Source: a virus
Length of the DNA: 64,000 nucleotides
Reading direction: 5' to 3' (one strand)
IMG/VR virus record: IMGVR_UViG_3300029258_005088
How positions within the stretch are numbered: the stretch's first letter is position 1; every line of letters begins with the position of its first letter. Shown piece by piece: positions 1-17,358 of the stretch. The position numbers and the translations under genes are program-made. The notes under the pieces were generated by a model. That model had not been told where the DNA came from, made no database searches, and saw nothing but the letters and a program-made list of their open reading frames with translations.

Positions 1-2414
1 ACGTAAGGGAGTACGCCGTCCCATTCCGGATCAGTCGTCGTCGCACAATTCTCGTTGCACACCACAAGACCATCGAAATACCCGGCGATCTTGTAATCAC
101 CTGTAAGTCCTGTCGGGCATGACGCCGGCACTGGACCTTGGTCGAATCCGGAGGACTCTTCCTCTGGGATAGCGGAACTGGTCTCCATGGCGGAGCTTCC
201 GCAAGGAACGCATGCTAAATTGATTTCCTGAGAGGATGGTGCGGCGGAAGACGCTACCACGGGTGGTAGAGGTTGCTCGCTGGCTTCTTTGCTCGAGAAT
301 TCCTGACCAAGGCTGGACACTTCCTGAGCCGAAGACACTTCCTGAGCGGAGGATTCTCCGGAGACCTCGGAACTGATATCCGGAGTGACCGATGAAACTT
401 CCTGATCCGAGCTGACCTCTACGGAAGAGCACTTAACAATAGTAAGCTCATCGACAGTATCCGCACAGCCGCTAATACGAGTATATACTCCCTCCGGCGT
501 GTCTCCGCTTTCTTTGATGCCTTCCCATATCACCACATCCCCTATACCGTCGTAACATTGAACTATAACATACCATCTGGATAATACGGTTTGCAGAGAA
601 ATGTAGTTCGCTGTGTCGCCTGAAAATACCTTTCCGTTGATTCTATCATCTAAGGGAGCTGTCCAGTTACACGCAGATTCGTATGTGAAATTACCATTCC
701 AGATTGACCCAGAGGCCGCATTTGTACATTCTGAACATGCTGCTAAAAACCCATCCGTGTAATTTTCAATGCAATAATCCCCGGTCAGACCAGGAGGACA
801 CGTCGTCGGAACAGGTATCAATGACTCGCTCTGCGTAGAGGATATCTCCTGGGTCAGACTGGATACCGCCTGATCCGAGCTTATAGCCTGTGCCGAGGAA
901 ATCTCCTGTGCGGAGGACACCTCTTGCAGAGGACTCGGGTCTCCGGGATCAGACGGGAACTGCGACGGATCTCCCGCGCTAGGAGCTACCGCGCTCGGAG
1001 CCTCGTCACAACTGAGAGTCACCACGGCTTCTCCGGAGCACTCGGATCCGGACTTCGTCCACGTATTTGTGGCGAATACGGCGTTTATCTCCCACTCGCC
1101 GTTGTTCCACAGTATCCAGACGTCGTCCGGGCCGCCTTGCCGATTATCCCACCAGCAAGGGCCTTGGACGGGATTCCAATAGACTGGGTGCTTCTTGTTT
1201 ATTCCTGCATAATTGGTGACTCCAGATATCTCTACGCAGAGCGTATCCGGAATCTTGGGGAAACAACTGTTGCACGCATTGGACGCGTCTCCATGAATCT
1301 CCGAGGGGGCTTCAAAATCGGATACCGTGCTGGACACTTCCTGTTCCGATGAGACGATCTGGGCCTGAGAAGGCTCTTGGTACGGCGAAGGCTCCTGGTA
1401 CGATGATTCCTGTATGGATGAGATCTCCTGTGCGGAGGACGGGTAAATACCGGTACAATCAGCGCAGTTGTCGTAGGTCTGCTGAACGGTTATGGCGCTT
1501 CCGACGTAGTACGACTCCTCGCACACCACCTTGCACACGATCCTGTAACACCTATCGATGAACGTAGGCTTGATGATCTTGCCCTCTGCGAATTCCGTGG
1601 ATAGATCGTTGGTTACCACGAGATCCGTATCCGTGAATACCTCGCACTTGTCCTCGTCGCCGACCGTTACGACTGCGGACTCGCCTCCTCCGGAATACAG
1701 GCCAGTGGGATCGCACGGATCCGTGCCTCCGGTCATCAAGGACCCGAAATTGACGGTCATCTTCCATTCTTCGTCGAACTCGTCCCAGTAACAGTCGACC
1801 TCACTCAGTCCTTTGTTGAAGGCCGATACGTCCCAGTACCTGTAAGAATACTGAGCATTCCATAGTATGTCGTACTCGTCCGGAGAGGCAGATCCTCCGC
1901 CACCACCATCATGGGATACGTGTATCATCTCGGGTATGATCGACGGAGTGTCGCAATCAGGCTGCCAGCTCATTCTCTGTATCTCCTGCTGGCAGGGGCG
2001 TAGTAGATAACAGTTTCTATTATCGATGGAGGATCCTTCTTCACTGGACGCGGACGGATACTGCAATGCGCTGGGCGCCTCGGATGGTGCGGAGGGCAAT
2101 TCCGATGGTGCGGGGGGCAATTCCGATGGTGCGGAAGGTACCTCGGACGCAGCGGATACAACGGACAATGATTCATCCGAGCTGAGCACTACGCTGGATA
2201 TCTCCGAAGATACGGAGCTATCGGAAGATACGGAGCTATCGGATGAAGACTCGGATATGGATGAGGACGAGGTTTCGCAGGCCTCGCAGTCAGGATAGAT
2301 GCCGTCGACGTCTTCGTGGCTCACAGGATCGGAGACATAGCCCGCGAACTCATAGCAGACGCCATCGATCTTGATGACTTCTCCGATCTTTCCTGGTAAT
2401 ATTACTTCCGACAT
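1..2414 (-). CDS. Large Ser/Glu-rich, Cys-rich modular virion/fibre protein, 3'-truncated by the window edge (>804 aa; absent from the ORF track)
   Basis: Hand translation from ATG at 2414 (MSEVILPGKIGEVIKIDGVCYEFAGY...) stays open to position 1. EISS/EVSS tracts alternate with Cys modules; the module CPxGLTGDYxIxxYxDG...C..C.......W[ND]G occurs twice. Confidence 0.9.
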   Translation of the reverse strand, partial: MSEVILPGKIGEVIKIDGVCYEFAGYVSDPVSHEDVDGIYPDCEACETSSSSISESSSDSSVSSDSSVSSEISSVVLSSDESLSVVSAASEVPSAPSELPPAPSELPSAPSEAPSALQYPSASSEEGSSIDNRNCYLLRPCQQEIQRMSWQPDCDTPSIIPEMIHVSHDGGGGGSASPDEYDILWNAQYSYRYWDVSAFNKGLSEVDCYWDEFDEEWKMTVNFGSLMTGGTDPCDPTGLYSGGGESAVVTVGDEDKCEVFTDTDLVVTNDLSTEFAEGKIIKPTFIDRCYRIVCKVVCEESYYVGSAITVQQTYDNCADCTGIYPSSAQEISSIQESSYQEPSPYQEPSQAQIVSSEQEVSSTVSDFEAPSEIHGDASNACNSCFPKIPDTLCVEISGVTNYAGINKKHPVYWNPVQGPCWWDNRQGGPDDVWILWNNGEWEINAVFATNTWTKSGSECSGEAVVTLSCDEAPSAVAPSAGDPSQFPSDPGDPSPLQEVSSAQEISSAQAISSDQAVSSLTQEISSTQSESLIPVPTTCPPGLTGDYCIENYTDGFLAACSECTNAASGSIWNGNFTYESACNWTAPLDDRINGKVFSGDTANYISLQTVLSRWYVIVQCYDGIGDVVIWEGIKESGDTPEGVYTRISGCADTVDELTIVKCSSVEVSSDQEVSSVTPDISSEVSGESSAQEVSSAQEVSSLGQEFSSKEASEQPLPPVVASSAAPSSQEINLACVPCGSSAMETSSAIPEEESSGFDQGPVPASCPTGLTGDYKIAGYFDGLVVCNENCATTTDPEWDGVLPY
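2081..2138 (-). repeat. 21-bp coding tandem repeat, about 2.7 copies (encodes (P/S)APSELP)
   Basis: c[c/g]gatggtgcgg[a/g]gggcaatt repeated in tandem. Confidence 0.85.
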
Positions 2415-2455: not shown

Positions 2456-3733
2456 CTATCCGCCTCCCGTTTCCGAGGACCCGGACGAAGAAGGCTGAGG
2501 TCCGCAGGGTTGCGGGCAGTTTTCATATCGATAATCATCAGGCGCTATCAAAGTTATTCCCTTCACCTGAGCATATAGGCTAAGCGACGTATTTATGCTC
2601 GTAGCCGGAGGTATGCAGTCGAAGAGCTTCAGACCTTCTACTTCGTTGCAGCAGTAGTAGTTCGTCTCGCTTCCCGCCGGGGCCCCGTTACAGTCTGACG
2701 CTACATAGAAGGTCAGCTCCACTCTATAGCATTCGCCCGGCTGGCATGTGGGCTCGTACGCGGACGGTCCCTGGGACGTTTCCGAGAACAGACTCTCAGA
2801 TGCCTCGGACACGGACTCCAGTGAAGAGGACACGGCGGATACAGACGATGATACGGACGATTCAGATGATGATACGGACGATTCGGATCCTGAAGACGAG
2901 CTGGTGCCGCATTCCACGTACAGAGCGTGGTTGTCCGGAGGCGTAGGCGGCTGCTGTCCGCTACCCGTTCCGCTTGATACGACCTGAATCTCAATATCGG
3001 ACGAGCTGGCTCCTTGAGGACCTCCTCCGGGCACCGTGCTTGATCTGGAGCCTGTCTGCTGAGATGATTCTTCCTCGGACAAAAACTCGCTGGAGGATCC
3101 CAATGTCAGAGACTCTAGGGAAGACTCACCAAGAGACTCTTCGGACAAGGAAGAAGATACGATAGGTTCCTCCAGAGACACCTCGGAAGACTCTTCGGAC
3201 AAGGAAGACGATGATCCTGAAGGAGGAAGCCCCTCACAACATACAACGCCTCTGACAAGGACCTGGGCCGTTGGAAGACCTGCATTCACTACGCCCAGTA
3301 CCTGGAACGCCACGGGCATGTCCTTACACACAGCTGTCTCGTACGCGGTACAGGCCAGGATGGCCCTTTCATCAAGACATGCCTCGTTCTGCTGTACTCC
3401 TAGTACGAATCTGCCTTCTATGGCGTTGTTGACCGTATCCCTGGGGAAGCCGTCATCTCCGGGAAATCCTCGTTCTTCACTCACCCCTATGAGGTTGGTG
3501 TACTTCCACAGATAATCGGGACAACCGGGAAGGCAGCAAGGACAATCCACGTCCAGGCCGTCCGGTCCTTTCGGTCCCTGCGGTCCGGGAGGACAGTTGG
3601 GAGGACACGGAGCAAGCCTGGCCGGCGCTCTCTTGAGACCTGCAGGAGGCGGTGCAAGAGCGCCACCGGCGGCTCTGGCCTTACCAGGCGCCGGTGCGGG
3701 ATCTCTCTTCTTGTTTACCTTTGGTGCAGGCAT
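2456..3733 (-). CDS. Basic Pro/Cys/collagen-like N-terminus + small beta module + Ser/Glu tracts + Cys-rich C-terminal module; probable virion fibre/accessory protein
   Basis: 425 aa; CPPNCPPGPQGPKGPDGLDVDCPCC; SSEE tracts; TAATG coupling to the upstream poly-Hint gene at 3733. Confidence 0.85.
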   Translation of the reverse strand: MPAPKVNKKRDPAPAPGKARAAGGALAPPPAGLKRAPARLAPCPPNCPPGPQGPKGPDGLDVDCPCCLPGCPDYLWKYTNLIGVSEERGFPGDDGFPRDTVNNAIEGRFVLGVQQNEACLDERAILACTAYETAVCKDMPVAFQVLGVVNAGLPTAQVLVRGVVCCEGLPPSGSSSSLSEESSEVSLEEPIVSSSLSEESLGESSLESLTLGSSSEFLSEEESSQQTGSRSSTVPGGGPQGASSSDIEIQVVSSGTGSGQQPPTPPDNHALYVECGTSSSSGSESSVSSSESSVSSSVSAVSSSLESVSEASESLFSETSQGPSAYEPTCQPGECYRVELTFYVASDCNGAPAGSETNYYCCNEVEGLKLFDCIPPATSINTSLSLYAQVKGITLIAPDDYRYENCPQPCGPQPSSSGSSETGGG

Positions 3734-6700
3734 TACGGCAAATTATCGCACTCCTCTGCGCATAGATTCACGTTACCGTCCAGTCCCGGAGGCCCTACAG
3801 GTCCCGGAGGTCCAGGACAACATGGTCTCGGAGGACACGGCGGCGGAGGCGGCGGTGGGGGAGGCGGAGGCGGCGGTGGGGGAGGCGGATCGCTTGGCGG
3901 AGGCGTCCTGTTGTGAGCCAACAGGCCATTCGCGAAGTACGTATGGCTATGCTCGATTCCCCACAGGTTGTAGACCTGTATCTCGCCTTCGACGTAATCC
4001 CAACCAGTGATCTTCAGCCAATTGCCTTTGTCGGTACGTACGCTGTCGCCTATGGCTATCTGTCCGACGTGCTTGAGGTAAGGATACGCCTTCTTCGTCA
4101 TGTCCGGCTCCAAAGAGCACCACAGCAATCTACCGTAGGACTTCGAAACCCACAGAGGATGTTCGTCGGTCAGCTTCAAGCAGCCGTCTTCGCCGAACCA
4201 CAGGTTGTAGTAACCCTCGCGCACCGGAGTCTGTATCTCCAATACCTTCTGGCCGGCAACGGTGTCTTCACGCTCGTTCCACGAAAGCACCAGATCTCCG
4301 ACTTCGACGTCCTCGATGTTCTTCGTGCTTCCGTCTGGAAGAGTAATCGGAGTGCCTGCCAGGAAGCAGGAGCGGTTATGTGCCAGGATCCTGTTGGCGA
4401 AGTACGTATGTGTATCCTTGACGCTGGAGAGATTGAACGTCTGGATCTCTCCTTCGACGTACTCCCATTTCACGATCGTACCGTTTTCGCCGCTGTCCAT
4501 GAAGATCTGATCCATCGCGGCCAGTTGCCTTACGCCCTTCAGATAGGGGTAGAACTCGGCCGTCATCTCGGGATCGATCGACGCCCAGTAGTCTTCTCCG
4601 TCTTGCTTGTGCACACGCAGGGGATGTTCCGCCGTTACGTTAAGGACCTGCTTCACGTCGTTGTCGTCGATGAAGAACATCCTGTAGTACCCTTCGCGGA
4701 GAGGTGCCTCTATGGCCGTAACCAACGCAGGCTTGATCTCGTCGTCGCTCCAGCTGAGGACCTCTTCCCCGGGCATGACGTCCTCGATAAGCTTGTAGGA
4801 GCCGTCCGGAAGAGTGATCATGGTTCCCGGCAGGAAACAGCATTTGTTGTGCACGAGCATCCCATCGGCATAGAACGTATGGGTACCTTCCACGGTGTCT
4901 ACGTTGTAGGTCTGGATCTCTCCGTGAACGAATCCGATGTGCATGACCTGGCACCACCCATTGTTGGCGGTCCTCACCTGGCAGCCTACCGCCAGCCGTC
5001 GAATGTCCTTGAGATGCGGGTACATCTCTCCCGTTCTCTGGGGATTGGCCGAGAACCATCCTTCGACGCCCTCGTCCCTGGCGTATACCGGATGCTCCGG
5101 GGTAAGCTGCAAGATGGTGTCGTCGAACATCGTGATCTTGTTGTAACCATTGGCCAGAGGAGAGGTGACCGTCAGTGCTCGGGCCTTGACCTGCTCTCCG
5201 GTATCCTCGTCCCAGGACAGAAGCTCGTCACCGATCTCGACGTCTTCGATGTTCTTGGAGGATCCGTCGCCCATCAGAACCTTAGTGCCCGGCAGGAAGC
5301 ACTTATTGTGCACCAGAGTCTCGTTGGCGTAGAAAGTCTTCGATGGTTCCACGCCTATGAGATCGAATACCTGAGTCTCTCCTATGATCCTCTTGATGCT
5401 GCGTATGCGTCCACGGGCACCGCTGACGAGCTGTACCTTGTCTCCAACCCGCATGAGCAGTATGTTGCTCAGTTCCGGGTTGAGATGGTAGCTCATGTCG
5501 GGATCCATCGACGCCCAGTACCAGCGACCTTCCTTGCGAACGCGTACGGGATGATCGGCGGTTAGTTCGATCTCGAATGAGTGTCCCTTGCCTGTGTATA
5601 TCTCGAGGAGGACGTGCTCCGAACGCTGTCTTACCTTGATATCGGTGAGCTTGCTGTTCGTCTGCTTGTCACGCATGCAGTTGTAGGACTTGAGAACGTC
5701 GCCTGGCTGAAGCTTTTCGACCTCTTTCTGCGTTCCGTCTGCCATGCTGATCATGGTACCGGCCAGAAAACACCCGCCTTTGTTGTGAACGAGGATGTCA
5801 TCGGCGAAAAACGTCATGGTTTTCGCTATTCTGGCCAGATTATAGGTCTGAATCTCGCCTTCGACCACCTCTATGTCGTTTACGACGAACCATTTGCTGT
5901 CGAAACGGCTATAGAGCTCGTCTCCAACGGCCAAATCAGGCAACATCGTGCCCAAATAAGGGTGATTTTCGAGTGATTTCGCCGAATCTACGGCAATCCA
6001 GCCTTCCCGGCCCTTTTTTCGGCCATACAGAGGGTGATCCGGGGTGACGTGGAGCGTTCTGTCGTCCATTTCGACCCTTGCATACGCCTCTGCGACGGGA
6101 GATTCGACCTGTTTTACCGTATCGACCTCCACTTTTCGGGTGGCTTCGTTGAAAGACAGGATTTTATCGTTGATTTCGACCGTTTCTATGGGTTTTTCGG
6201 TGCCGTCTGCCATCTGAATGCGCGTTCCGGCAAGGAAACAGGCCCCTTTGTTGTGGACCAGGAAGCCGTTGACGTAATAGGTCATAGTCTTCTTCACAGA
6301 CCACAGGTTGTAGGTCTGAATTTCGCCCTCGACGGCCTCGATTTCGGTGATTTTGGCCCTTCCGCCGCATTTCACCAGCATATTTCCGACCTGAAGGAGC
6401 CTGGGACTGCGAATATAGGGGTGTGCCTGCTGTGCGTCGAACGGTTTTACCGCCGCCCACACGACGTCGTCGTTGTGAAGCACCGCCAGAGGGTGTTCTC
6501 CGGTAACCTCTAGGTCTCCGTTGTCTGTTTTGACCCTGAAATAGGATGCATGCGTCGGCGATTCCACGCCGGTAACCGTTCCCGGCTCGTCTTCCTCGGT
6601 AAGTTCGTTGTAGGTAAGGACCTCGTCACCTACCTTCACCTTTTCGATGGGCTTCTCACTGCCATCGGCCATGGTGACGGAGGCTCCTGCAAGGAAGCAC

Positions 6701-7572
6701 CCGCCTTTGTTGTGCACGAGCACGTCATCGGCCAGGAAGTTGTTGTGAGGAGCCACTCCCTTGAGGTTGTAGACCCTGTGTCCGTGCGGCTTGCTTATCC
6801 AGGTGACGGACGTCACGAGCTTGTCTCCGAATATGGTCCTGACACGCATTCCGTCCGTAAGCGCTTTGTCGTCCAGCTCCAGTCCGGGGTTCTCCTCGGC
6901 GCCCTTTTCCGGACTGACGCACCGCCAGAGACGGGTACCATCGCCTTCAATGGTCATAACCGGGTGATCGGAGGTAAGCTGCAGACCGCTTCCATCCTCG
7001 AGATGGATCAGAACGAGCTCGTCGGCCTCCAGCGTGTACACGGCCCGTACCTCGGAAGGAGCCCACTGCTCCAGCGACTCGTCCAGTGACATAACCATGT
7101 CTCCCGGCTTCACCTCTTCGATACGGACGTAACCGTGATCGTACATCTTGATGAGAGTACCGGCGGGGAAGCACCCGCCTCCGCCGCCGTTGTGTACTAG
7201 AAGGTTCTGGCGGAAGATGTCCGCCGACTCCACGTCGACGAAGGTGCAGTTCACAGGAGTGTCCGTGACGATCTCCTTGACCGATCCCACTGGGAACCAG
7301 CCTTCCTCGAGATCGTACAGCTCGACGCCTTCGGACAAGCCTCTGTGTAGCTGGATCCAGTTTCCGGCCTTTGCCATGAACTTCGTCACTGACGGGAACA
7401 CGTACTTGTCGTCGATGATGACGAAGTGCGATACAGGCTTCAGCTGGGCCGCCGTGATGACGTCCCTTTCCGGCTCCTGGGCCTTGGTATCGAAGCCCCA
7501 GACCTCTTCACCCTTCCTGGGGTGATCGACTCTTCCCGTTATCTCGGTATACTTTACGATTGGCGTATCCAT
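3733..7572 (-). CDS. Poly-Hint (intein-like/BIL-type) polyprotein: 1 N-truncated + 7 intact Hint domains + polyPro/Cys/collagen tail
   Basis: Seven repeats of CF[LP][AP]G...TxxHP...[YF][ND][LV]...L[VA]HN of 150-156 aa, at 7173-6709, 6699-6250, 6240-5782, 5772-5305, 5301-4846, 4839-4375 and 4368-3910. The first domain (7572-7189) lacks Cys1 but ends LVHN. SD GGGGGAG precedes the ATG. Confidence 0.95.
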   Translation of the reverse strand: MDTPIVKYTEITGRVDHPRKGEEVWGFDTKAQEPERDVITAAQLKPVSHFVIIDDKYVFPSVTKFMAKAGNWIQLHRGLSEGVELYDLEEGWFPVGSVKEIVTDTPVNCTFVDVESADIFRQNLLVHNGGGGGCFPAGTLIKMYDHGYVRIEEVKPGDMVMSLDESLEQWAPSEVRAVYTLEADELVLIHLEDGSGLQLTSDHPVMTIEGDGTRLWRCVSPEKGAEENPGLELDDKALTDGMRVRTIFGDKLVTSVTWISKPHGHRVYNLKGVAPHNNFLADDVLVHNKGGCFLAGASVTMADGSEKPIEKVKVGDEVLTYNELTEEDEPGTVTGVESPTHASYFRVKTDNGDLEVTGEHPLAVLHNDDVVWAAVKPFDAQQAHPYIRSPRLLQVGNMLVKCGGRAKITEIEAVEGEIQTYNLWSVKKTMTYYVNGFLVHNKGACFLAGTRIQMADGTEKPIETVEINDKILSFNEATRKVEVDTVKQVESPVAEAYARVEMDDRTLHVTPDHPLYGRKKGREGWIAVDSAKSLENHPYLGTMLPDLAVGDELYSRFDSKWFVVNDIEVVEGEIQTYNLARIAKTMTFFADDILVHNKGGCFLAGTMISMADGTQKEVEKLQPGDVLKSYNCMRDKQTNSKLTDIKVRQRSEHVLLEIYTGKGHSFEIELTADHPVRVRKEGRWYWASMDPDMSYHLNPELSNILLMRVGDKVQLVSGARGRIRSIKRIIGETQVFDLIGVEPSKTFYANETLVHNKCFLPGTKVLMGDGSSKNIEDVEIGDELLSWDEDTGEQVKARALTVTSPLANGYNKITMFDDTILQLTPEHPVYARDEGVEGWFSANPQRTGEMYPHLKDIRRLAVGCQVRTANNGWCQVMHIGFVHGEIQTYNVDTVEGTHTFYADGMLVHNKCCFLPGTMITLPDGSYKLIEDVMPGEEVLSWSDDEIKPALVTAIEAPLREGYYRMFFIDDNDVKQVLNVTAEHPLRVHKQDGEDYWASIDPEMTAEFYPYLKGVRQLAAMDQIFMDSGENGTIVKWEYVEGEIQTFNLSSVKDTHTYFANRILAHNRSCFLAGTPITLPDGSTKNIEDVEVGDLVLSWNEREDTVAGQKVLEIQTPVREGYYNLWFGEDGCLKLTDEHPLWVSKSYGRLLWCSLEPDMTKKAYPYLKHVGQIAIGDSVRTDKGNWLKITGWDYVEGEIQVYNLWGIEHSHTYFANGLLAHNRTPPPSDPPPPPPPPPPPPPPPPPCPPRPCCPGPPGPVGPPGLDGNVNLCAEECDNLP
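3836..3888 (-). repeat. Polyproline tract (17 consecutive Pro) containing a 21-bp duplication
   Basis: ggcggcggtgggggaggcgga occurs twice, inside the C-terminal tail of the poly-Hint ORF. Confidence 0.9.
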
Positions 7573-7584
7573 GTCGATCTCCCC

Positions 7585-10500
7585 CTATCCGATGTTGAAG
7601 CTACCGCTGTTCCGGACACCGTAATCGCCCCAGAGCTCGTAGTACTCGTCAGGCAGCCACGAATCCAGTCGGCCGGTCTCTTGGTTCCAGAACACTCCGG
7701 AGTATTGAACAGGATGGAAATACCAGCCGTACTCCCCGGTGACCGCATCTCTGCGCCAGTCCGCGAAGTACTCCTTGTATCCCTCCCACTCTCCGGTGGC
7801 GGGGTCCGACAGTCTGTCTCCTCGTACGTCTCCGAACTCGTCCAGAATGTCCAGGCCGGAAACTATTCTCAGGTTGGGGTCGTCGACGTACCAACGATCG
7901 CCGTCCTGAGCGCCTTCCACGAGGTGGTTCCAGAGGCTCTCCGCCTCTTCGTCTATCAGCCTGGTGGCGAAGATAGCTACCTCGTCCAGAGTGGCGTCCA
8001 GATAGTAATCCGACTGTCCCACGGGATTCGGAGGAACGGGATAGAACGGAATGCCGCTGCTACTGGATTCCTCCATGATGGGAGGATCTTCCTGAGAGGA
8101 GCTGCCGACGTCGAACGTCCGTCCGATGTTCATCGGGGCCCAGTCTCCGACACGGCCATCGCTCATCAGATACGGCATGTTTCCACGGTATTCGTCCTGT
8201 TGTACGTAAGCGGATACCTCTTCGCCGTCGATGAATATCTGAGGGGCCCCATTGTAATAATGCTTGGACCAGCTGACGGTGATCTGGTGGAAGCCGTCGG
8301 TATCCGTTATGGCGTCTTCCGATATGGCTACGAACTCCTCTATGCCGGCTTCCCTGTTCGATACCGTGGTAAGCGAAGTGACCTCGGCGGACTTGGGATG
8401 AGGATCGGCGACGGGAGTGCTGTCCGGATTGGGTTTCTCCGCACTCGGCAAATACTCGTCGTAGAAATGCAGCGCCGACGGAGGATCAGCGTCGGGATCG
8501 TTCATGACGTACCAACTCTCCGGAACGAAGGGTTGGTTGTCGTCCGTCCACCACATCGCGTTGACCGCATCGGTTCCCTTTCCGAGGAACCATCCGAACC
8601 ATCCGCTGTCCGGATGCGTGTTCTGGTAGATGCAGTATGCTGGATTGGATGCCTTGCGATAGACCGGCCTGCCGTTCACGGTCCACGTCAGAGGATACGG
8701 CGTGAGCACGGGGGTGTCCCCATATCCGTAGTAGTCCTCGAACCACTGACTCGGTGGTATGATGTCGGTCTGTCCGGGATGCCATTCCGCGAAGAAGTAG
8801 TTCTCTTCGTGGTTCGTTCCCTTGCCTATGAACCATGCGGCCCAACCGGGCTCCCACGGAGAATAGTCGCGATAGATGTAATAGTCCGGGTTGGCTCTGT
8901 TCTGCCATATCGTCTTTCCGCTGCCGCCTTGCAACTGCGGGTAGTTGAATATCTTCGACGATGGTCCCGGATCCGCTCCGAGGGACGACACGTAGAAGCT
9001 CAACGGGAACTCGTCGTCGTTGAACACCGCCCAGTACATGTTGGCCGGCTCGATGGTCTCGAAGATTCCGAGAACCCACTGTGCATAGGATTCCGAAGCA
9101 TCTACGTAAAGCTCGAGGTCGGGGTTCTCGGTATTGCGCCATATCGGCTGACCGGCTCCCTGCCACTTCGTGATCTGTATGAGGCCGTTGTCGTAGAACT
9201 CCTCAGACCTGCGGGCTCGTATGGTATCGTCCTGGAATCCGAGATACTGCATGGTCAGCCAGGTGATGGGCGGCTGAGCGTGCTTCATACGGTAACTGTA
9301 GTAAAAGCCGTTGTTGTAGTCGGCGTCAAGACCGAGTATCCAACCATCCCAGCTGTCGCCGGCATGGAACATCGTGTAATCCCTGTCGAGAGCTACCTTT
9401 CTCCATACACCGAACGTGCCCTGATTGGAGGTGACGCTCCAGGTCATGTCCGTGGAGGGGTCCGGGGCTCCCGCTCCAAGGATCGCGTCCTTGGCGGCGG
9501 TCCAGTACTCTTCCGGTACGTAGACGCCGTTGAAGTCGATGTCCAGAGCTCCCGAGCTGGAGCTCTCTTCCGACTGGTCTATGGGGAGGCCGTCCTCGTT
9601 GAACAGCTGAGCGTTCTCGACCTTTATGTTCGGGAACGGCAGCGAGGGATCCTCGTATACGACGCGTGCGGTATCCCAGTCATCCTGCGATACGTAGTAG
9701 CCGTCCACTGCTGGGAATCCCGCTCCCTCTATCTGCACGTAAGGGTATGCGAACTCCGGAGTACCGTCGTTACCGTCTATGGAGACGAAGTCGTACCATC
9801 CATTGAGTTCCGCTATGGCACACTCGGATAGCGACACGGCGCCGTACTCTCCCCAGCTCTGCTCCTCTTCGGAGTTAGACGAGTTCAGAATCTCGTACCC
9901 TTCCTCGCTGACGTACACCCCGTCGAAATCTCGGATGTTGGCTCCGGAAATCTCGGCATAGTCATAAGGATTGCTGATAAGTTCCGTGGTCCTCTCGACG
10001 ACGGTATCGGCTCCTTTGCCCAGACGCACTTCAACCTGGTCGTTCTCGTTGAAACCGACCCAGTACTGCTTTCCATCGGCCTCGCGCCATTTGCTGAGAA
10101 CCGTCTGCCGGGTTCCTGTGGAGCTGCGCTTGACCGCGAACGTCGCCGCGAACTTGTAGCACACCTCTCCTCCGAACACCTGCATGTTCAGGAAATCGTC
10201 CTGTCCGCAGTCCAGGTAATTGGACTCGGCTCGAACGAATTCGGCTGCATAGGTGATCTCCTGGCTACTGTCCGAGGTGGCCTGCTCGTCGCCGGAACTG
10301 CTTCCGGTCTCTTCCACTGGCTGGTAGATGTAGCCCTTCTTCACGACGCCGGGAACACCGAACGTCGGGAGATTCTCGGTCTGTCTACGGAAGGCGTTGA
10401 ATCCGTAATCACCGGATCCTTCGTCGAAATGCCACAGACCCATGGTAAAGGCATCCGGATCCAGACGACGGCCATAGCCGTTGTTGAATGCATAGGCCTG

Positions 10501-11565
10501 CTCCGCGGCGCTTCTGACCCTGTTGCTGATACGCATCTCGGAGAACAGGGCGTCTATGCCTTGATTGGTCTTGTACTTGTCCCAGTAGTTCCCGATCAGG
10601 AGATTGGACTCGATTCCGTCGTTCGGGAAGACGGTTGCATTCGCGTCGAAGCCGTATACCGGATCCTGCTGGAGGTTGACGGACAGCGTCATTCCAGTGT
10701 CTTCGGACCAGGTAGCCACTACGTAATACCACTCGTCCTTGGTCCACTTGTACTGAGATGACTGAGCGAATCCCCAGTCGGAGAAATCGCACTCCTCGGA
10801 GGGCGTGAACCCCGGATTGAAAACATGCGTGTTGAAGCTCAGCGGGCCGCCCGTTATGGAGCAGGAAGGATCCGCCGGCAACATCTGAAGAGTAAGCTCG
10901 TCGCTGATCCAGCGGTACTCGTCGTTGATGACTAGACGGTTGATCTTGCTGAGAAGACATGCGGATGCCGGATAGGTGGCTCCCTGGTTGGATCTGTCTC
11001 CGCCAAAGATATTTATGGACGGCGACCACCAAAATTCTATCGTCAGTTCTTTCTTCCCGTTGAGAGGGTTCTCGGGATACCGGTGAAGGATGCCAGGTAT
11101 GACGGCAGCGACGTTGTCGAGTATGCCCGATCGAGTGCGTATGCAGCTGTCCCCCTCATCAAGGAAAAAGCCTGGCTGCAGGCCGTCTTCCGCGACGAGC
11201 TGGTGCCATGCTCCCGGGGTTACGCGTGCGGTGAATTGAGAACCGCCGTCGTGTCCGTATATGCTGGAGTCCGCGGCCTGAGGATCTCCGGCCTGCTGCT
11301 CGAACTTCCAGAAGCCCCTTATGGTACGCCAGTGCGGCATTCCTTCTAGACTGTAGAACCAGTCTATCTCGGGCGGCGATAGTCTATAGCCTTTGACGCT
11401 CGGCAGCGCGTAACTACGGTCATACATCTCTCTCAGGAATCGGTCCAGATTCTCTCGAGCGAGATTATACTGATCGTATTCTTCCTGCCCGAACGCACCG
11501 AATTCCGGGAGATAGAAGTGATCATTGACCGTCTTCCTCGGATTGTCTGGATTGCGACGTGTCAT
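7585..11565 (-). CDS. Large adhesin/tail-fibre-like protein with two LamG/concanavalin-like domains, the second interrupted by a ~550-aa repeat insert
   Basis: 1326 aa. LamG-type motifs WYYVVATW...IG...FSEMRISNRVRS, GLWHFDEGSG, FHQITVSW...IFIDG and LDEVAIF. SD GAGGAG. Confidence 0.75.
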   Translation of the reverse strand: MTRRNPDNPRKTVNDHFYLPEFGAFGQEEYDQYNLARENLDRFLREMYDRSYALPSVKGYRLSPPEIDWFYSLEGMPHWRTIRGFWKFEQQAGDPQAADSSIYGHDGGSQFTARVTPGAWHQLVAEDGLQPGFFLDEGDSCIRTRSGILDNVAAVIPGILHRYPENPLNGKKELTIEFWWSPSINIFGGDRSNQGATYPASACLLSKINRLVINDEYRWISDELTLQMLPADPSCSITGGPLSFNTHVFNPGFTPSEECDFSDWGFAQSSQYKWTKDEWYYVVATWSEDTGMTLSVNLQQDPVYGFDANATVFPNDGIESNLLIGNYWDKYKTNQGIDALFSEMRISNRVRSAAEQAYAFNNGYGRRLDPDAFTMGLWHFDEGSGDYGFNAFRRQTENLPTFGVPGVVKKGYIYQPVEETGSSSGDEQATSDSSQEITYAAEFVRAESNYLDCGQDDFLNMQVFGGEVCYKFAATFAVKRSSTGTRQTVLSKWREADGKQYWVGFNENDQVEVRLGKGADTVVERTTELISNPYDYAEISGANIRDFDGVYVSEEGYEILNSSNSEEEQSWGEYGAVSLSECAIAELNGWYDFVSIDGNDGTPEFAYPYVQIEGAGFPAVDGYYVSQDDWDTARVVYEDPSLPFPNIKVENAQLFNEDGLPIDQSEESSSSGALDIDFNGVYVPEEYWTAAKDAILGAGAPDPSTDMTWSVTSNQGTFGVWRKVALDRDYTMFHAGDSWDGWILGLDADYNNGFYYSYRMKHAQPPITWLTMQYLGFQDDTIRARRSEEFYDNGLIQITKWQGAGQPIWRNTENPDLELYVDASESYAQWVLGIFETIEPANMYWAVFNDDEFPLSFYVSSLGADPGPSSKIFNYPQLQGGSGKTIWQNRANPDYYIYRDYSPWEPGWAAWFIGKGTNHEENYFFAEWHPGQTDIIPPSQWFEDYYGYGDTPVLTPYPLTWTVNGRPVYRKASNPAYCIYQNTHPDSGWFGWFLGKGTDAVNAMWWTDDNQPFVPESWYVMNDPDADPPSALHFYDEYLPSAEKPNPDSTPVADPHPKSAEVTSLTTVSNREAGIEEFVAISEDAITDTDGFHQITVSWSKHYYNGAPQIFIDGEEVSAYVQQDEYRGNMPYLMSDGRVGDWAPMNIGRTFDVGSSSQEDPPIMEESSSSGIPFYPVPPNPVGQSDYYLDATLDEVAIFATRLIDEEAESLWNHLVEGAQDGDRWYVDDPNLRIVSGLDILDEFGDVRGDRLSDPATGEWEGYKEYFADWRRDAVTGEYGWYFHPVQYSGVFWNQETGRLDSWLPDEYYELWGDYGVRNSGSFNIG

Positions 11566-14254: not shown

Positions 14255-16975
14255 TCAACACGTTGTAGAAGTTACGGAAGGCGCAGGGAACAGCCCATCG
14301 AGAGCATCCCAGGAAGCTCCTGACGGCGGAGTGGGAGTGTCCTGGAAAGAGGCCTCGTAATAGAACGGGTAATCTCTGTATCCATAATCTATTATCCATG
14401 CAGGTCCTACGGGATCCCAGTAGATGGCCCATTGGCTGTCGACCTGCTGGACGTACTGCGGGCGTCCGTTCCTCGTACCGTTCTCGCAATAAGTCCCGTC
14501 GCATCCCGTCTCGCCGGCTCCCGATACCGTGTACCCGGCACCTCCACCGCCTCCGCCCTCGGCGGATGAGCTGGTCTCTTCCTGCTGGCTGCTTGTCTCG
14601 ACTGCGGAAGAGGTCTCGACTGCGGAAGAGGTCTCGACTGCGGAAGACACCTCTTCCAATCCATCATCTATCTTGAATTCCGCCTCGAAAGTCCATGTCT
14701 GAGATATGCTTCCGGACACACCGTTCCATCTGTAATATCTATAATAACCAACATTGGCGGAAAGGTCGAATACGAAGGGGTTGGCGCTTCCTCCCTGAGG
14801 ATCGCCTATGTCCGTCCAGTCCGATCCGTTGTTCGATCCCTGCACCTGCCATGTTCCGAAGTCGAAAGCGAACTCCCTTGTCACTCGTATCTCAGATATA
14901 TATCTCGGCTTTCCGAAGTCGAATTGCACGTATCCGGAAACGGAGCCACTGGGCCAGTAGAAGTCGGATGCAGTGCCCCCGTTTAAGAGATTGTTGACGT
15001 CGCCCGAAGCTGGCTGCGTGGTGGTAGCCGTTATCGTAGATTGTCTGTCACCCGTGCCTCCCGGATTCGAGTAGGACGTCGGAGGAGGAACGAATGGCTC
15101 CGACGCGGAGGACTGAGCCTCCTGGGCGGAGCTGATAGCGGCATCCATGGAACTGACTTCCTCGGCGGTCATACTACGCATACTGGAGATCTCTGCGGGA
15201 CTGCTTGTCTCTTCCGGAGGCGGGCTGGGAGATACGTTTCTCGTTGCGGCCAGCGCCAGGTTGTCTCCGAAACTTGCCACCGTCGTGACCACACCCGTAG
15301 ACGGGTTTATCTTGACGAGATCTGCTGTGGCGGATCCCGTGACGAGGTTTCCGTAGAGCTCGTTGTTGTAATTGCACATGTCTCTCATGTTACCGGATGG
15401 CGACGTTGCTACAGGTGTTCCGAGAGTGGCCGTGGCAAGCGTGATGGGATAGATATTGTTGGATACCGAGTAATACGCCGATCCATCATCCATGACCGCC
15501 ATTCCTTGGCCCTGGCCTGCCGTAAGGGATCCTACCAGCGTCTTGGAAGCATCCGAGAGATCCAGGCTGTACAGGACGTTGCCGCTGCTGTGCTGGTTTC
15601 CAGTGGCGATGTAGGCGTTTCCATCGTTGTCTATGACCAGTATAAGTACGTAATCACCAAGGTTTCCTATATAAGTTCCTACGCCTGTGTCTCGATTTAT
15701 TTCCCAAAGGCCGCAGTTGGCGGGATCATTTGACTCAGCCATGTACAGCTTGCCCGTAGTGGGATCCAAAGCCATCGATCTTATGTAAGCGGAGCCGGAG
15801 GCGCCCAACAGAGTCGTGCCCCCTGTTGCTGCATCTACGGTGTAGACGTCTCCTGCCGTATTCCCGGTATACATCACTGGGACGAACGGCTCTGCGCTTG
15901 ACTCCGCACCCTCCTCGGAACTAATCCCCTCTTCCGCGCTGGATATCTCGCCTATTCCGGAGGACGTCTCCTGAAGGCTTGATACTTCCGCTGGCGAAGA
16001 TACTTCCGTGGGTGAGGAAACTTCCGTGGGTGAGGAAACTTCCGTGGGTGAGGATACCTCTGCGGCACTGGATACTTCTACTCCGGAGGACACTTCCTGC
16101 AGACTGGATATCTCTACTGGAGACGATATCTCTGCCGGTGAGGATACCTCGTCCGCACTGGATTCCTCCATGGGAGTGTCTCCGCAGCAGGCGATGGCCT
16201 CGGCGAACAACGCCTGTCCGAAGGGACCGCCGGCATCATACTCGGTGTATATCTGGGTGACGAACTGCTCGAGATAAAGCCCCATGTCCTGGCAGGACGA
16301 GCTGGCCCGCTCCAGTAGATCGGCGAGATCGGTCACCGTAGTCACGACGGATGGTATGGCATCTGGAACGCCGTTGTCTATACAGGTCGTTATCGGAAAC
16401 GTGCTGAGGCACTGCGTGAAGAATACCTGAGTCTCTCCGGGAAGCCATTGAAGATCTCTGAAGTAAGTGCCCGGCAACGGACTGTCTCCGCCTTCCACGA
16501 CGCCGAGCAGTATCCTCGGAGCCGCCTGCAGAGGATACAGCGTCCCTCTCACCAGATCACCGGACACCAGCCCGTCGGATATGCTTCCGATATCCGCCGC
16601 CTTGGTTATCTTCCAGGCAAGTATCGTGTCAGGGCTGCCGGCATCCGGGTAAATCGCTACGTACGGATGATCTATGGTATCGCCTGGCTGAACGTATCCG
16701 GTCATCTCGGATACGGGGACGTTCGCGGCAACCATGAAAGAGGTGTCGTCTCGTATTCCCTGCCATATCGGATATCCGTTGAAGAAGCTCGTCGTCCTCT
16801 CGTAATCCTGAACGCCGTGCTCGTAGTCTGAGTCGTATATCAGATTGACGGACTCAAGTGCGCCGGATGAGCCCTCCCCTTCTCCGTAGGATATCGCCGT
16901 GGTCTGCGTTCGTATCGTCGACAGCTCGGGGGCTTGCTGATCATACCTTCTTATAAACTGCCATAGATGTTCCAT
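14255..16975 (-). CDS. Multidomain fibre/adhesin: beta-propeller-like repeats, F5/8 type C (discoidin/CBM32)-like domain, C-terminal NGRPxY module, Ser/Glu linkers (906 aa)
   Basis: Start corrected to MEHLWQ at 16975 (TAATG coupling). Propeller-like blades (SMALDPTTGKLY, LWEINRDTG, LYSLDLSD, LVKINPSTG); SYSNPGGTGDR...QFDFG...WQVQGSNNGSDWTD...YRYYR. Confidence 0.75.
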   Translation of the reverse strand: MEHLWQFIRRYDQQAPELSTIRTQTTAISYGEGEGSSGALESVNLIYDSDYEHGVQDYERTTSFFNGYPIWQGIRDDTSFMVAANVPVSEMTGYVQPGDTIDHPYVAIYPDAGSPDTILAWKITKAADIGSISDGLVSGDLVRGTLYPLQAAPRILLGVVEGGDSPLPGTYFRDLQWLPGETQVFFTQCLSTFPITTCIDNGVPDAIPSVVTTVTDLADLLERASSSCQDMGLYLEQFVTQIYTEYDAGGPFGQALFAEAIACCGDTPMEESSADEVSSPAEISSPVEISSLQEVSSGVEVSSAAEVSSPTEVSSPTEVSSPTEVSSPAEVSSLQETSSGIGEISSAEEGISSEEGAESSAEPFVPVMYTGNTAGDVYTVDAATGGTTLLGASGSAYIRSMALDPTTGKLYMAESNDPANCGLWEINRDTGVGTYIGNLGDYVLILVIDNDGNAYIATGNQHSSGNVLYSLDLSDASKTLVGSLTAGQGQGMAVMDDGSAYYSVSNNIYPITLATATLGTPVATSPSGNMRDMCNYNNELYGNLVTGSATADLVKINPSTGVVTTVASFGDNLALAATRNVSPSPPPEETSSPAEISSMRSMTAEEVSSMDAAISSAQEAQSSASEPFVPPPTSYSNPGGTGDRQSTITATTTQPASGDVNNLLNGGTASDFYWPSGSVSGYVQFDFGKPRYISEIRVTREFAFDFGTWQVQGSNNGSDWTDIGDPQGGSANPFVFDLSANVGYYRYYRWNGVSGSISQTWTFEAEFKIDDGLEEVSSAVETSSAVETSSAVETSSQQEETSSSAEGGGGGGAGYTVSGAGETGCDGTYCENGTRNGRPQYVQQVDSQWAIYWDPVGPAWIIDYGYRDYPFYYEASFQDTPTPPSGASWDALDGLFPAPSVTSTTC
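14595..14648 (-). repeat. 18-bp coding tandem repeat x3 (SSAVET)
   Basis: gtctcgactgcggaaga[g/c] x3. Confidence 0.9.
16002..16055 (-). repeat. 18-bp coding tandem repeat x3 (EVSSPT)
   Basis: acttccgtgggtgagga[a/t] x3, within a longer degenerate E[IV]SS hexad array. Confidence 0.9.
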
Positions 16976-17358
16976 TATGCTTCCACCACGATTATTTCCA
17001 CCGGAGGCAGTTCGTTTATACGGGCGACGTCCTCGATGGTATGCTGGACCGACCACAGGATCCTTTGCCAGTTCTCCTCAAGAATGGCCTTGCTGTCGAA
17101 AACCAGATCGAAGAAGTACTGTCTGAAGAACGGGGTCTTGTCGTCTGGAGCTTCCGCTGGATATTCCTGAAGATCCGCATAACTGGCTACGTGAACGAAG
17201 ATGTCTTGAAGCTCCGTATCCAGAGGAACGAGGGGGATTCTCTGGTAGACGAAGACCTGGGCCGGTATGTTGTTCGTCGTCTCGGATACCCAGACACGGA
17301 GCCGTTGACGGAAGTCATCCGTCTGGGTTAGCTTCTTCGACAACTTTATACTGGCCAT
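16975..17358 (-). CDS. Small hypothetical virion protein (paralog of 13513-14247)
   Basis: 127 aa; tiles between its neighbours; motif similarity as noted above. Confidence 0.8.
   Translation of the reverse strand: MASIKLSKKLTQTDDFRQRLRVWVSETTNNIPAQVFVYQRIPLVPLDTELQDIFVHVASYADLQEYPAEAPDDKTPFFRQYFFDLVFDSKAILEENWQRILWSVQHTIEDVARINELPPVEIIVVEA

Follow-up and report, generated by a model that had tools for sequence, protein, structure and literature searches.

In a 64,000-nucleotide stretch of viral DNA (IMG/VR record IMGVR_UViG_3300029258_005088; hereafter the window), the minus-strand open reading frame (ORF) at 3733..7572 encodes a 1279-residue protein made up of eight intein-like domains: a leading unit, which we call U0, and seven intact Hint units, U1 to U7. 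We hold with modest confidence that U0 is the leading unit of a type-A BIL-like tandem Hint array in an uncultured large phage, with its N-terminal side catalytically dead, its terminal His-Asn kept, and a pentaglycine spacer (Gly5) joining it to U1. The predicted cut between Asn128 and Gly129 by cyclization of the asparagine we regard as probable. U0 is thus a one-sided variant of the type-A BIL domain that heads a tandem array, and such arrays seem undescribed in the literature that we searched.

Domain architecture of the array protein

The initial annotation of the window, made from the nucleotide sequence and its translated ORFs, placed an N-terminal "cleave-only" Hint domain and a following pentaglycine at 7174–7572. 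These coordinates are correct and correspond, on the minus strand, to residues 1–133 of the 1279-residue protein. Translation of the ORF agrees with the description given there: U0 (residues 1–128) starts with MDTPIV, ends with LLVHN, and has no Cys at its start and no T-x-x-H within residues 1–128; exactly five Gly occupy residues 129–133, and CFPAGT opens with its Cys at residue 134. The intact units, of 150–156 residues each, all carry Cys1, TxxHP, and a terminal His-Asn (HN). From U1 onward they are followed by the linkers KGG, KGA, KGG, K, KC, and RS, and the residue directly after HN (the +1 position) is Lys in five units and Arg in two. The pieces between domains throughout the array are 1–5 residues long. 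The features of the array are as follows, with conservation referring to the three orthologues described below.

7189..7572, minus strand: U0, the leading degenerate Hint domain, residues 1–128, lacking Cys1 and the block B TxxH
7189..7194, minus strand: His127-Asn128, the sole catalytic motif left in U0 and unchanged across the three orthologues, with Asn128 as the putative cyclization site
7174..7188, minus strand: Gly129–Gly133, the Gly5 linker between U0 and U1, exactly five Gly in the three orthologues
6709..7173, minus strand: U1, the first intact unit, with Cys134, TSDHP, and HN288; Gly133–Cys134 is the would-be first thioester bond
3910..6708, minus strand: U2–U7 and their linkers, with Lys or Arg after every HN

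U0 is conserved and under purifying selection

An exhaustive phmmer search of 1.84 billion representative proteins identified only two relatives of U0. One, P0002, is a 1285-residue protein from Logan runs SRR26786785 and SRR26786787 (loci L001 and L002), and the other, P0003, lies on a 1.8-kb JGI contig (locus L003). A word-indexed search returned one orthologue, a scan of the JGI metagenomes found L003 again and nothing further, and scans of IMG/VR yielded neither a U0 relative nor the pattern HN-Gly5-Cys-Phe. The three orthologues all keep the same start, the lack of Cys1 and TxxH, the LVHN ending, exactly five Gly, and the CFPAGT that opens U1, and the Gly5 codons differ synonymously between loci. 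The initial annotation had proposed asking whether homologous arrays also begin with a Cys-less unit followed by a glycine run, and in these close relatives they do, the run being Gly5. At L003:1578–1580, an in-frame stop interrupts U1, and the frame goes on as Hint sequence beyond it; a sequencing error and a pseudogene are among the possible causes.

The U0 domains of the window and of P0002 share 64% identity, within the 48–78% range of the intact units. The ratio of nonsynonymous to synonymous substitution rates (dN/dS) for U0 is about 0.11, among the lowest in the array, compared with 0.10–0.27 for U1–U5, values for which dS is saturated and which do not extend to U6 and U7, where dS is not computable. 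This pattern indicates that U0 is under strong purifying selection, as strong as that acting on the intact units, and its low dN/dS together with its kept features argues that it is a selected, working part of the protein and not a decaying copy. At all 19 linker positions the window and P0002 have the same residue, with nine codons synonymously different, and by this comparison Gly5 does not stand out from the other linkers in its conservation.

U0 is predicted to adopt a truncated Hint fold

A profile of U0 aligned with a profile of the seven intact units over residues 13–128 (hhalign probability 73%, E 3e-5); U0 had no match among the Pfam hidden Markov models at E 0.1, nor did a profile search of PDB sequences return one at E 10. 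An AlphaFold (AF2) model of U0, for which the three U0 sequences alone served as input, gave a predicted local distance difference test score (pLDDT) of 69, with low confidence in the first 15 and last 10 residues. Foldseek placed the BIL domain of Clostridium thermocellum and BIL2 of Tetrahymena at the top of the matches to this model (probability 1.00, E 6e-5 to 1e-4, template modeling (TM) scores of 0.65–0.71). VIA-align superimposed the model on BIL2 (6y75) with a Z score of 11.2 and a root-mean-square deviation of 2.1 Å over 110 residues, and on Hedgehog and mini-inteins with Z scores of about 10. In the BIL2 alignment, residue 14 of U0 pairs with residue 17 of BIL2, so U0 starts approximately three residues past the Cys1 position, just after the CFxx motif of an intact unit, where the initial annotation had put it. 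As modeled, U0 is a true Hint fold that lacks roughly the first three residues, the Cys nucleophile among them, as well as the Thr and His of block B. A Hint fold devoid of Cys1 and block B also upholds the earlier claim that U0 cannot carry out the N-terminal reaction. A two-domain model of U0-Gly5-U1 reached a pLDDT of only 43 and gave no usable geometry.

Comparison with the known classes of Hint domain places U0 within the superfamily by its horseshoe-like all-beta fold. Of the features of a canonical class 1 intein, it has the terminal His-Asn and lacks Cys, Ser, or Thr at position 1, the block B T-x-x-H, a +1 nucleophile (the residue is Gly129), and a conserved host protein, there being none on either side. 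The type-A BIL domain has a terminal His-Asn without a +1 nucleophile, and U0 shares this (HN, then Gly); the thioester-forming N-terminal Cys or Ser of that class is missing in U0 and present in U1–U7. U0 is accordingly a truncated variant of the type-A BIL domain, not a full member. Nor does it have the Trp-Cys-Thr triplet (B:12, F:4, G:5) and N-extein of a class 3 intein: its G:5 residue is Val126, its block B is not alignable, and no N-extein precedes it. Cys109 of U0 (7246–7248, minus strand) is invariant and in a gapless alignment falls at F:4, the position of the class 3 intein nucleophile. A split intein is likewise a poor description, since the upstream protein ends in S/S/D-FNIG without a conserved nucleophile and the +1 residue is Gly.

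Leading units without Cys1 recur in other tandem Hint arrays

A search with the array as query recovered more than 200 long proteins, as well as many short ones, in which Hint units stand 1–5 residues apart; these come from metagenomic phages, Thermoplasmatales, Aenigmarchaeota, and candidate-phylum bacteria. Among the 117 proteins having an intact unit, 78 have an HN at most 10 residues before the first intact Cys1, a count that includes some split-gene artefacts; two families are clear. In an ATP-grasp-like family, 44 of 49 members carry, ahead of their first intact unit, a unit that matches Hint block A (hhalign 94%); Gly replaces Cys1 in 41 of these 44 leading units, and HN is kept. The mean pairwise identity of this family is 41%, and HN is among the few columns of its leading units that are conserved at 90% or above. 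On IMG/VR viral contigs, 39 of 43 arrays have a headless leading unit that keeps HN; its position 1 is Thr, Gly, Ala, or Ser, and TxxH is missing in 38 of the 39. In these families, HN is followed by SP, AP, NP, or IPPK and not by Gly. The proteins P0008, P0129, and P0132 had also been candidates for arrays with a truncated first unit and were rejected as gene-calling or contig-end artefacts.

As judged from these alignments, an N-terminally dead first unit with its His-Asn kept is a recurring design of tandem Hint arrays, and its recurrence in unrelated families argues that the HN of U0 is used. Cargo-less tandem Hint arrays amount to hundreds of metagenomic proteins in phages, archaea, and candidate-phylum bacteria, and the regularity with which the first unit is disabled on its N-terminal side with His-Asn kept, both here and in the unrelated ligase-fused families, supplies a testable rule on how the arrays are built and in what order their units may fire. 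We found no description of tandem Hint or intein arrays, cargo-less ones included, in the literature searched.

Two further observations concern the junctions. HN-Lys and HN-Arg are the commonest junctions in unrelated tandem Hint proteins as well, and many such proteins end in HN-Lys-stop. P0004, P0005, and P0006, from Thermoplasmatales and other metagenomic sources, carry 8–12 tandem Hint units with a lone Thr, Ser, or Cys at each junction, which provides each unit with a proper +1 nucleophile and represents another flavor of array than the Lys/Arg type found here.

The start of U0 and the upstream gene

The array begins with an ATG at 7572, preceded at a distance of 6 nt by GGGGGAG. The region upstream comprises two features.

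7573..7584, minus strand: intergenic spacer of 12 nt, containing the ribosome-binding site GGGGGAG
7585..11565, minus strand: upstream gene, 1326 residues, with a weak Laminin_G_3 match; the protein ends in GSFNIG and is followed by TAG (7585–7587)

The initial annotation had noted a TAG five codons upstream of U0 and argued that Cys1 could not be recovered from an earlier start. Both points stand: the TAG at 7585–7587 is the stop codon of the 1326-residue gene, which lies in the same frame, and across the window, L001, and L003, the gaps between the two genes are 12, 10, and 12 nt, the upstream stops are TAG, TAG, and TAA, and position 1, were the domain extended upstream, would be occupied by Ser, Ser, and Asp. 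The alternative that a Ser1 might be recovered from the upstream SFNIG was rejected because that residue is Asp in L003.

Two explanations would attach U0 to the upstream protein. Were the stop codon read through, or TAG recoded, the two proteins would be fused and U0 would become an internal domain. The two ORFs do share a frame in the window and L003, but the 10-nt gap of L001 puts them in different frames, and the L003 stop is TAA. TAG closes 10 of the 47 genes in the window, where all three stop codons are in ordinary use, and each locus has a ribosome-binding site of its own, with GGAG or GAGGA in the spacers of L001 and L003. The comparison of the three loci refutes read-through, which we regard as eliminated for practical purposes. 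A split Hint domain produced by gene fission, in which the upstream xFNIG would be the missing first strand of U0 and would dock to tie both proteins together, we consider very improbable. MAFFT does align the upstream SFNIG with CFLAG of the intact units, the upstream protein closes with an invariant FNIG in all three loci (7588–7602, minus strand, in the window; L001:5307–5321; L003:810–824), and U0 begins where that strand would go on. However, the resemblance between SFNIG and CFLAG is weak, with two of five residues matching, the variable position 1 offers no conserved nucleophile, and at a distantly related locus (L009) an upstream protein ending in YNIP precedes an array with a complete first Hint unit.

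Predicted chemistry of U0 and the alternatives

The chemical steps that we infer, from the cleavage onward, would run as follows. Having neither the Cys nucleophile nor block B, U0 cannot form a thioester or cut on its N-terminal side, an incapacity in keeping with its place at the very start of the protein, where no N-terminal substrate exists. With the terminal His-Asn kept, the only Hint reaction left to it would be cyclization of Asn128, which would cut the Asn128–Gly129 bond and make U0 an asparagine lyase. The cleave-only interpretation is reasonable in this respect because HN is the only catalytic element that the sequence retains. U1 would form the first thioester at Gly133–Cys134, and Gly5 would give small residues on the N-terminal side of Cys134, comparable to the Gly-Cys-Phe of Hedgehog. 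The free glycine amine left by the cleavage would probably be a by-product or, at most, the usual amine of a type-A BIL reaction, and not a dedicated initiator.

Several points weigh against this scheme. U0 lacks both the block F His, at which it has Ala117, and the block B His, residues that aid Asn cyclization in some inteins; the block F His is missing in U2–U4 as well. Asn-Gly is the sequence most prone to deamidation, a reaction that would compete with cleavage. Structural demands on the last strand, to which it belongs, could account for the retention of the HN. A pure spacer role does not explain why exactly five Gly are retained at all three loci, and the conservation counts are small, as they draw on only three close orthologues and one distant one, all of them metagenomic.

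The main rival, possible but in our judgment unlikely, casts U0 as a cap or docking module without catalytic activity. Together with Gly5, it would then be the N-terminal flank, or cargo, of U1 and would be released in one piece by hydrolysis of the Gly133–Cys134 thioester or by its transfer to a nucleophile, as in Hedgehog. The joint loss of Cys1, block B, and the block F His speaks for this reading, and the strong conservation of the U0 domain suits a binding role. Two other arrays are consistent with it. L009, a cargo-less four-unit array, has as its true N terminus a 14-residue leader ending in GGG before Cys1, which shows that a first unit needs no more than some N-terminal flank. In L006 (ENA ERZ27256810 k141_727615, 2–200), a distant relative with the same Cys-rich collagen-like tail, an HN is followed by a 54-residue linker of which 52 residues are Gly and then by an intact Cys-Phe unit, a tether that suits a freely moving module; the L006 contig ends just upstream of this linker, and the unit before it lies outside the contig. 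Against an inert cap stands the HN itself, which is invariant in U0 and conserved at 90% or above in the unrelated ATP-grasp-like family in spite of its low mean identity, a degree of retention that is hard to account for if the motif is idle.

The initial annotation had gone further in proposing that U0 cuts after Asn128 to expose an H2N-Gly5, which would attack the downstream thioesters as a built-in initiator. We consider this improbable. The exact conservation of Gly5 in three loci and the recurrence of an HN-then-Gly junction in L006 speak for it. In solved structures, the termini of Hint domains lie close together, and by such geometry the U2 junction may in principle be within reach of the Gly5 amine. 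In the accepted type-A BIL mechanism, moreover, Asn cyclization frees an amine that attacks the Hint thioester (PMC4031507), and for that reason the chemistry is not new. However, other families with headless first units have SP, AP, NP, or IPPK after HN, Hint proteins without a preceding Hint unit, and hence without an upstream HN, commonly have oligo-Gly immediately ahead of their first Cys1, and the corresponding run in L006 contains far more Gly than five. Gly runs are also ordinary linkers here, with runs of at least four Gly in 4 of the 47 proteins of the window. Each intact unit would free its own Lys or Arg +1 amine beside its own thioester, and thus an initiator is not needed. The sortase analogy on which the proposal drew depends on recognition by an enzyme, not on the intrinsic reactivity of oligo-Gly.

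These comparisons lend no support to a designed nucleophile, and the simplest reading of Gly5 is as a flexible spacer that also forms the N-terminal flank of the would-be first thioester, Gly133–Cys134. Hedgehog proteins likewise have a Gly directly before the Cys-Phe of their cleavage site. A further Gly5, following SHD, occurs at 1893–1907 (minus strand) and a Gly6 within 14255–17056 (minus strand), both in neighboring Ser-rich, Cys-rich, fiber-like proteins.

A bolder extension of the favored reading is that a headless, HN-keeping first unit is required in tandem Hint arrays and that its Asn cyclization, by liberating an amine only a few residues ahead of the first thioester, starts a directional type-A BIL chain, in which the conserved linkers (Gly5, KGG, KGA, KGG, K, KC, and RS) are either stitched onto the collagen-like tail or cyclized and released. 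We give this little credence; if it were true, the array would be a ribosome-encoded, enzyme-free peptide-assembly device on a phage fiber.

Comparison with known Hint systems

The C. thermocellum BIL domain (PDB 2lwy) resembles U0 in its Hint fold (Z 10.4), its terminal His-Asn, its lack of Cys, Ser, or Thr at +1, and the chemistry expected of it, an Asn cyclization that liberates an amine (PMC4031507), whereas U0, without an N-terminal nucleophile and block B, could perform half of the BIL reaction at most. U0 differs from type-A BIL domains also in its position, which is at the extreme N terminus and at the head of seven further units. The best structural match, BIL2 of Tetrahymena thermophila BUBL1 (PDB 6y75 and 6tmm), is likewise part of a repeated polyprotein, but there the BIL domains alternate with ubiquitin-like cargo, whereas the units here are separated by pieces of a few residues and U0 has no Cys1. 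In BIL2, the thioester is passed to the amine of a Lys (PMC8616854), and the side-chain amine of the +1 Lys may have a similar role in the present array.

The Hedgehog C-terminal autoprocessing domain (PDB 1at0) shares the Hint fold with U0 (Z 10.4) and has a small Gly before the Cys-Phe of its cleavage site, as Gly5 precedes Cys134 of U1; it has no terminal His-Asn and carries out the N-terminal reaction only, which is the opposite half from that left to U0. The leading units of the phage ATP-grasp-ligase/Hint proteins, like U0, have lost Cys1 (Gly, Ala, Ser, or Thr instead) and TxxH and keep HN directly before the first intact unit. Those units lie behind a large enzyme domain and use SP, AP, NP, or IPPK joints, whereas U0 has nothing before it and a Gly5 joint, and we detected no sequence relation between the two beyond the fold.

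Inteins engineered for C-terminal cleavage, in which position 1 is mutated and the Asn is kept, serve as self-removing N-terminal tags that expose a chosen residue. They are laboratory constructs, and by the same logic U0 would be a natural, conserved case at the head of an array, a one-sided (C-terminal-cleavage-only) Hint domain of a form known mainly from engineered purification tags. U0 may itself prove useful as such a tag, small in size and leaving Gly as the first residue of what follows.

Genomic context and the collagen-like tail

The array gene lies in a run of minus-strand genes with few database matches, among them a weak one to a head protease, others to virion proteins, and one to an F5/8 type C domain, and a terminase gene lies near the array in L001. 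Two features follow U7.

3736..3909, minus strand: C-terminal tail of the array protein, residues 1222–1279, with a poly-Pro stretch, a Cys cluster, five G-X-Y triplets, and a C-x-E-E-C end
2456..3733, minus strand: next gene, 425 residues, whose start overlaps the array stop; an N-terminal Cys cluster and G-X-Y triplets (~3509–3607) precede Ser-rich linkers

The array tail and the N-terminal part of the next gene product thus share a Cys cluster, four or five G-X-Y triplets, and a further Cys cluster, and this motif is kept in three loci (the window, L001:9192–10595, and L006:2100–3863). Its presence in both products suggests that the array protein and its neighbor assemble through a short collagen-like stalk among Ser-rich, fiber-like proteins. 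The stalk may be a hetero-oligomer that joins the two. In L006, the first 33 residues encoded by the gene that follows the array (L006:2100–2200) resemble Hint blocks F and G and end in HN-Lys, and the collagen/Cys motif comes next; its product is a second protein that starts with a Cys-less Hint fragment, a stub similar to an intein C-fragment.

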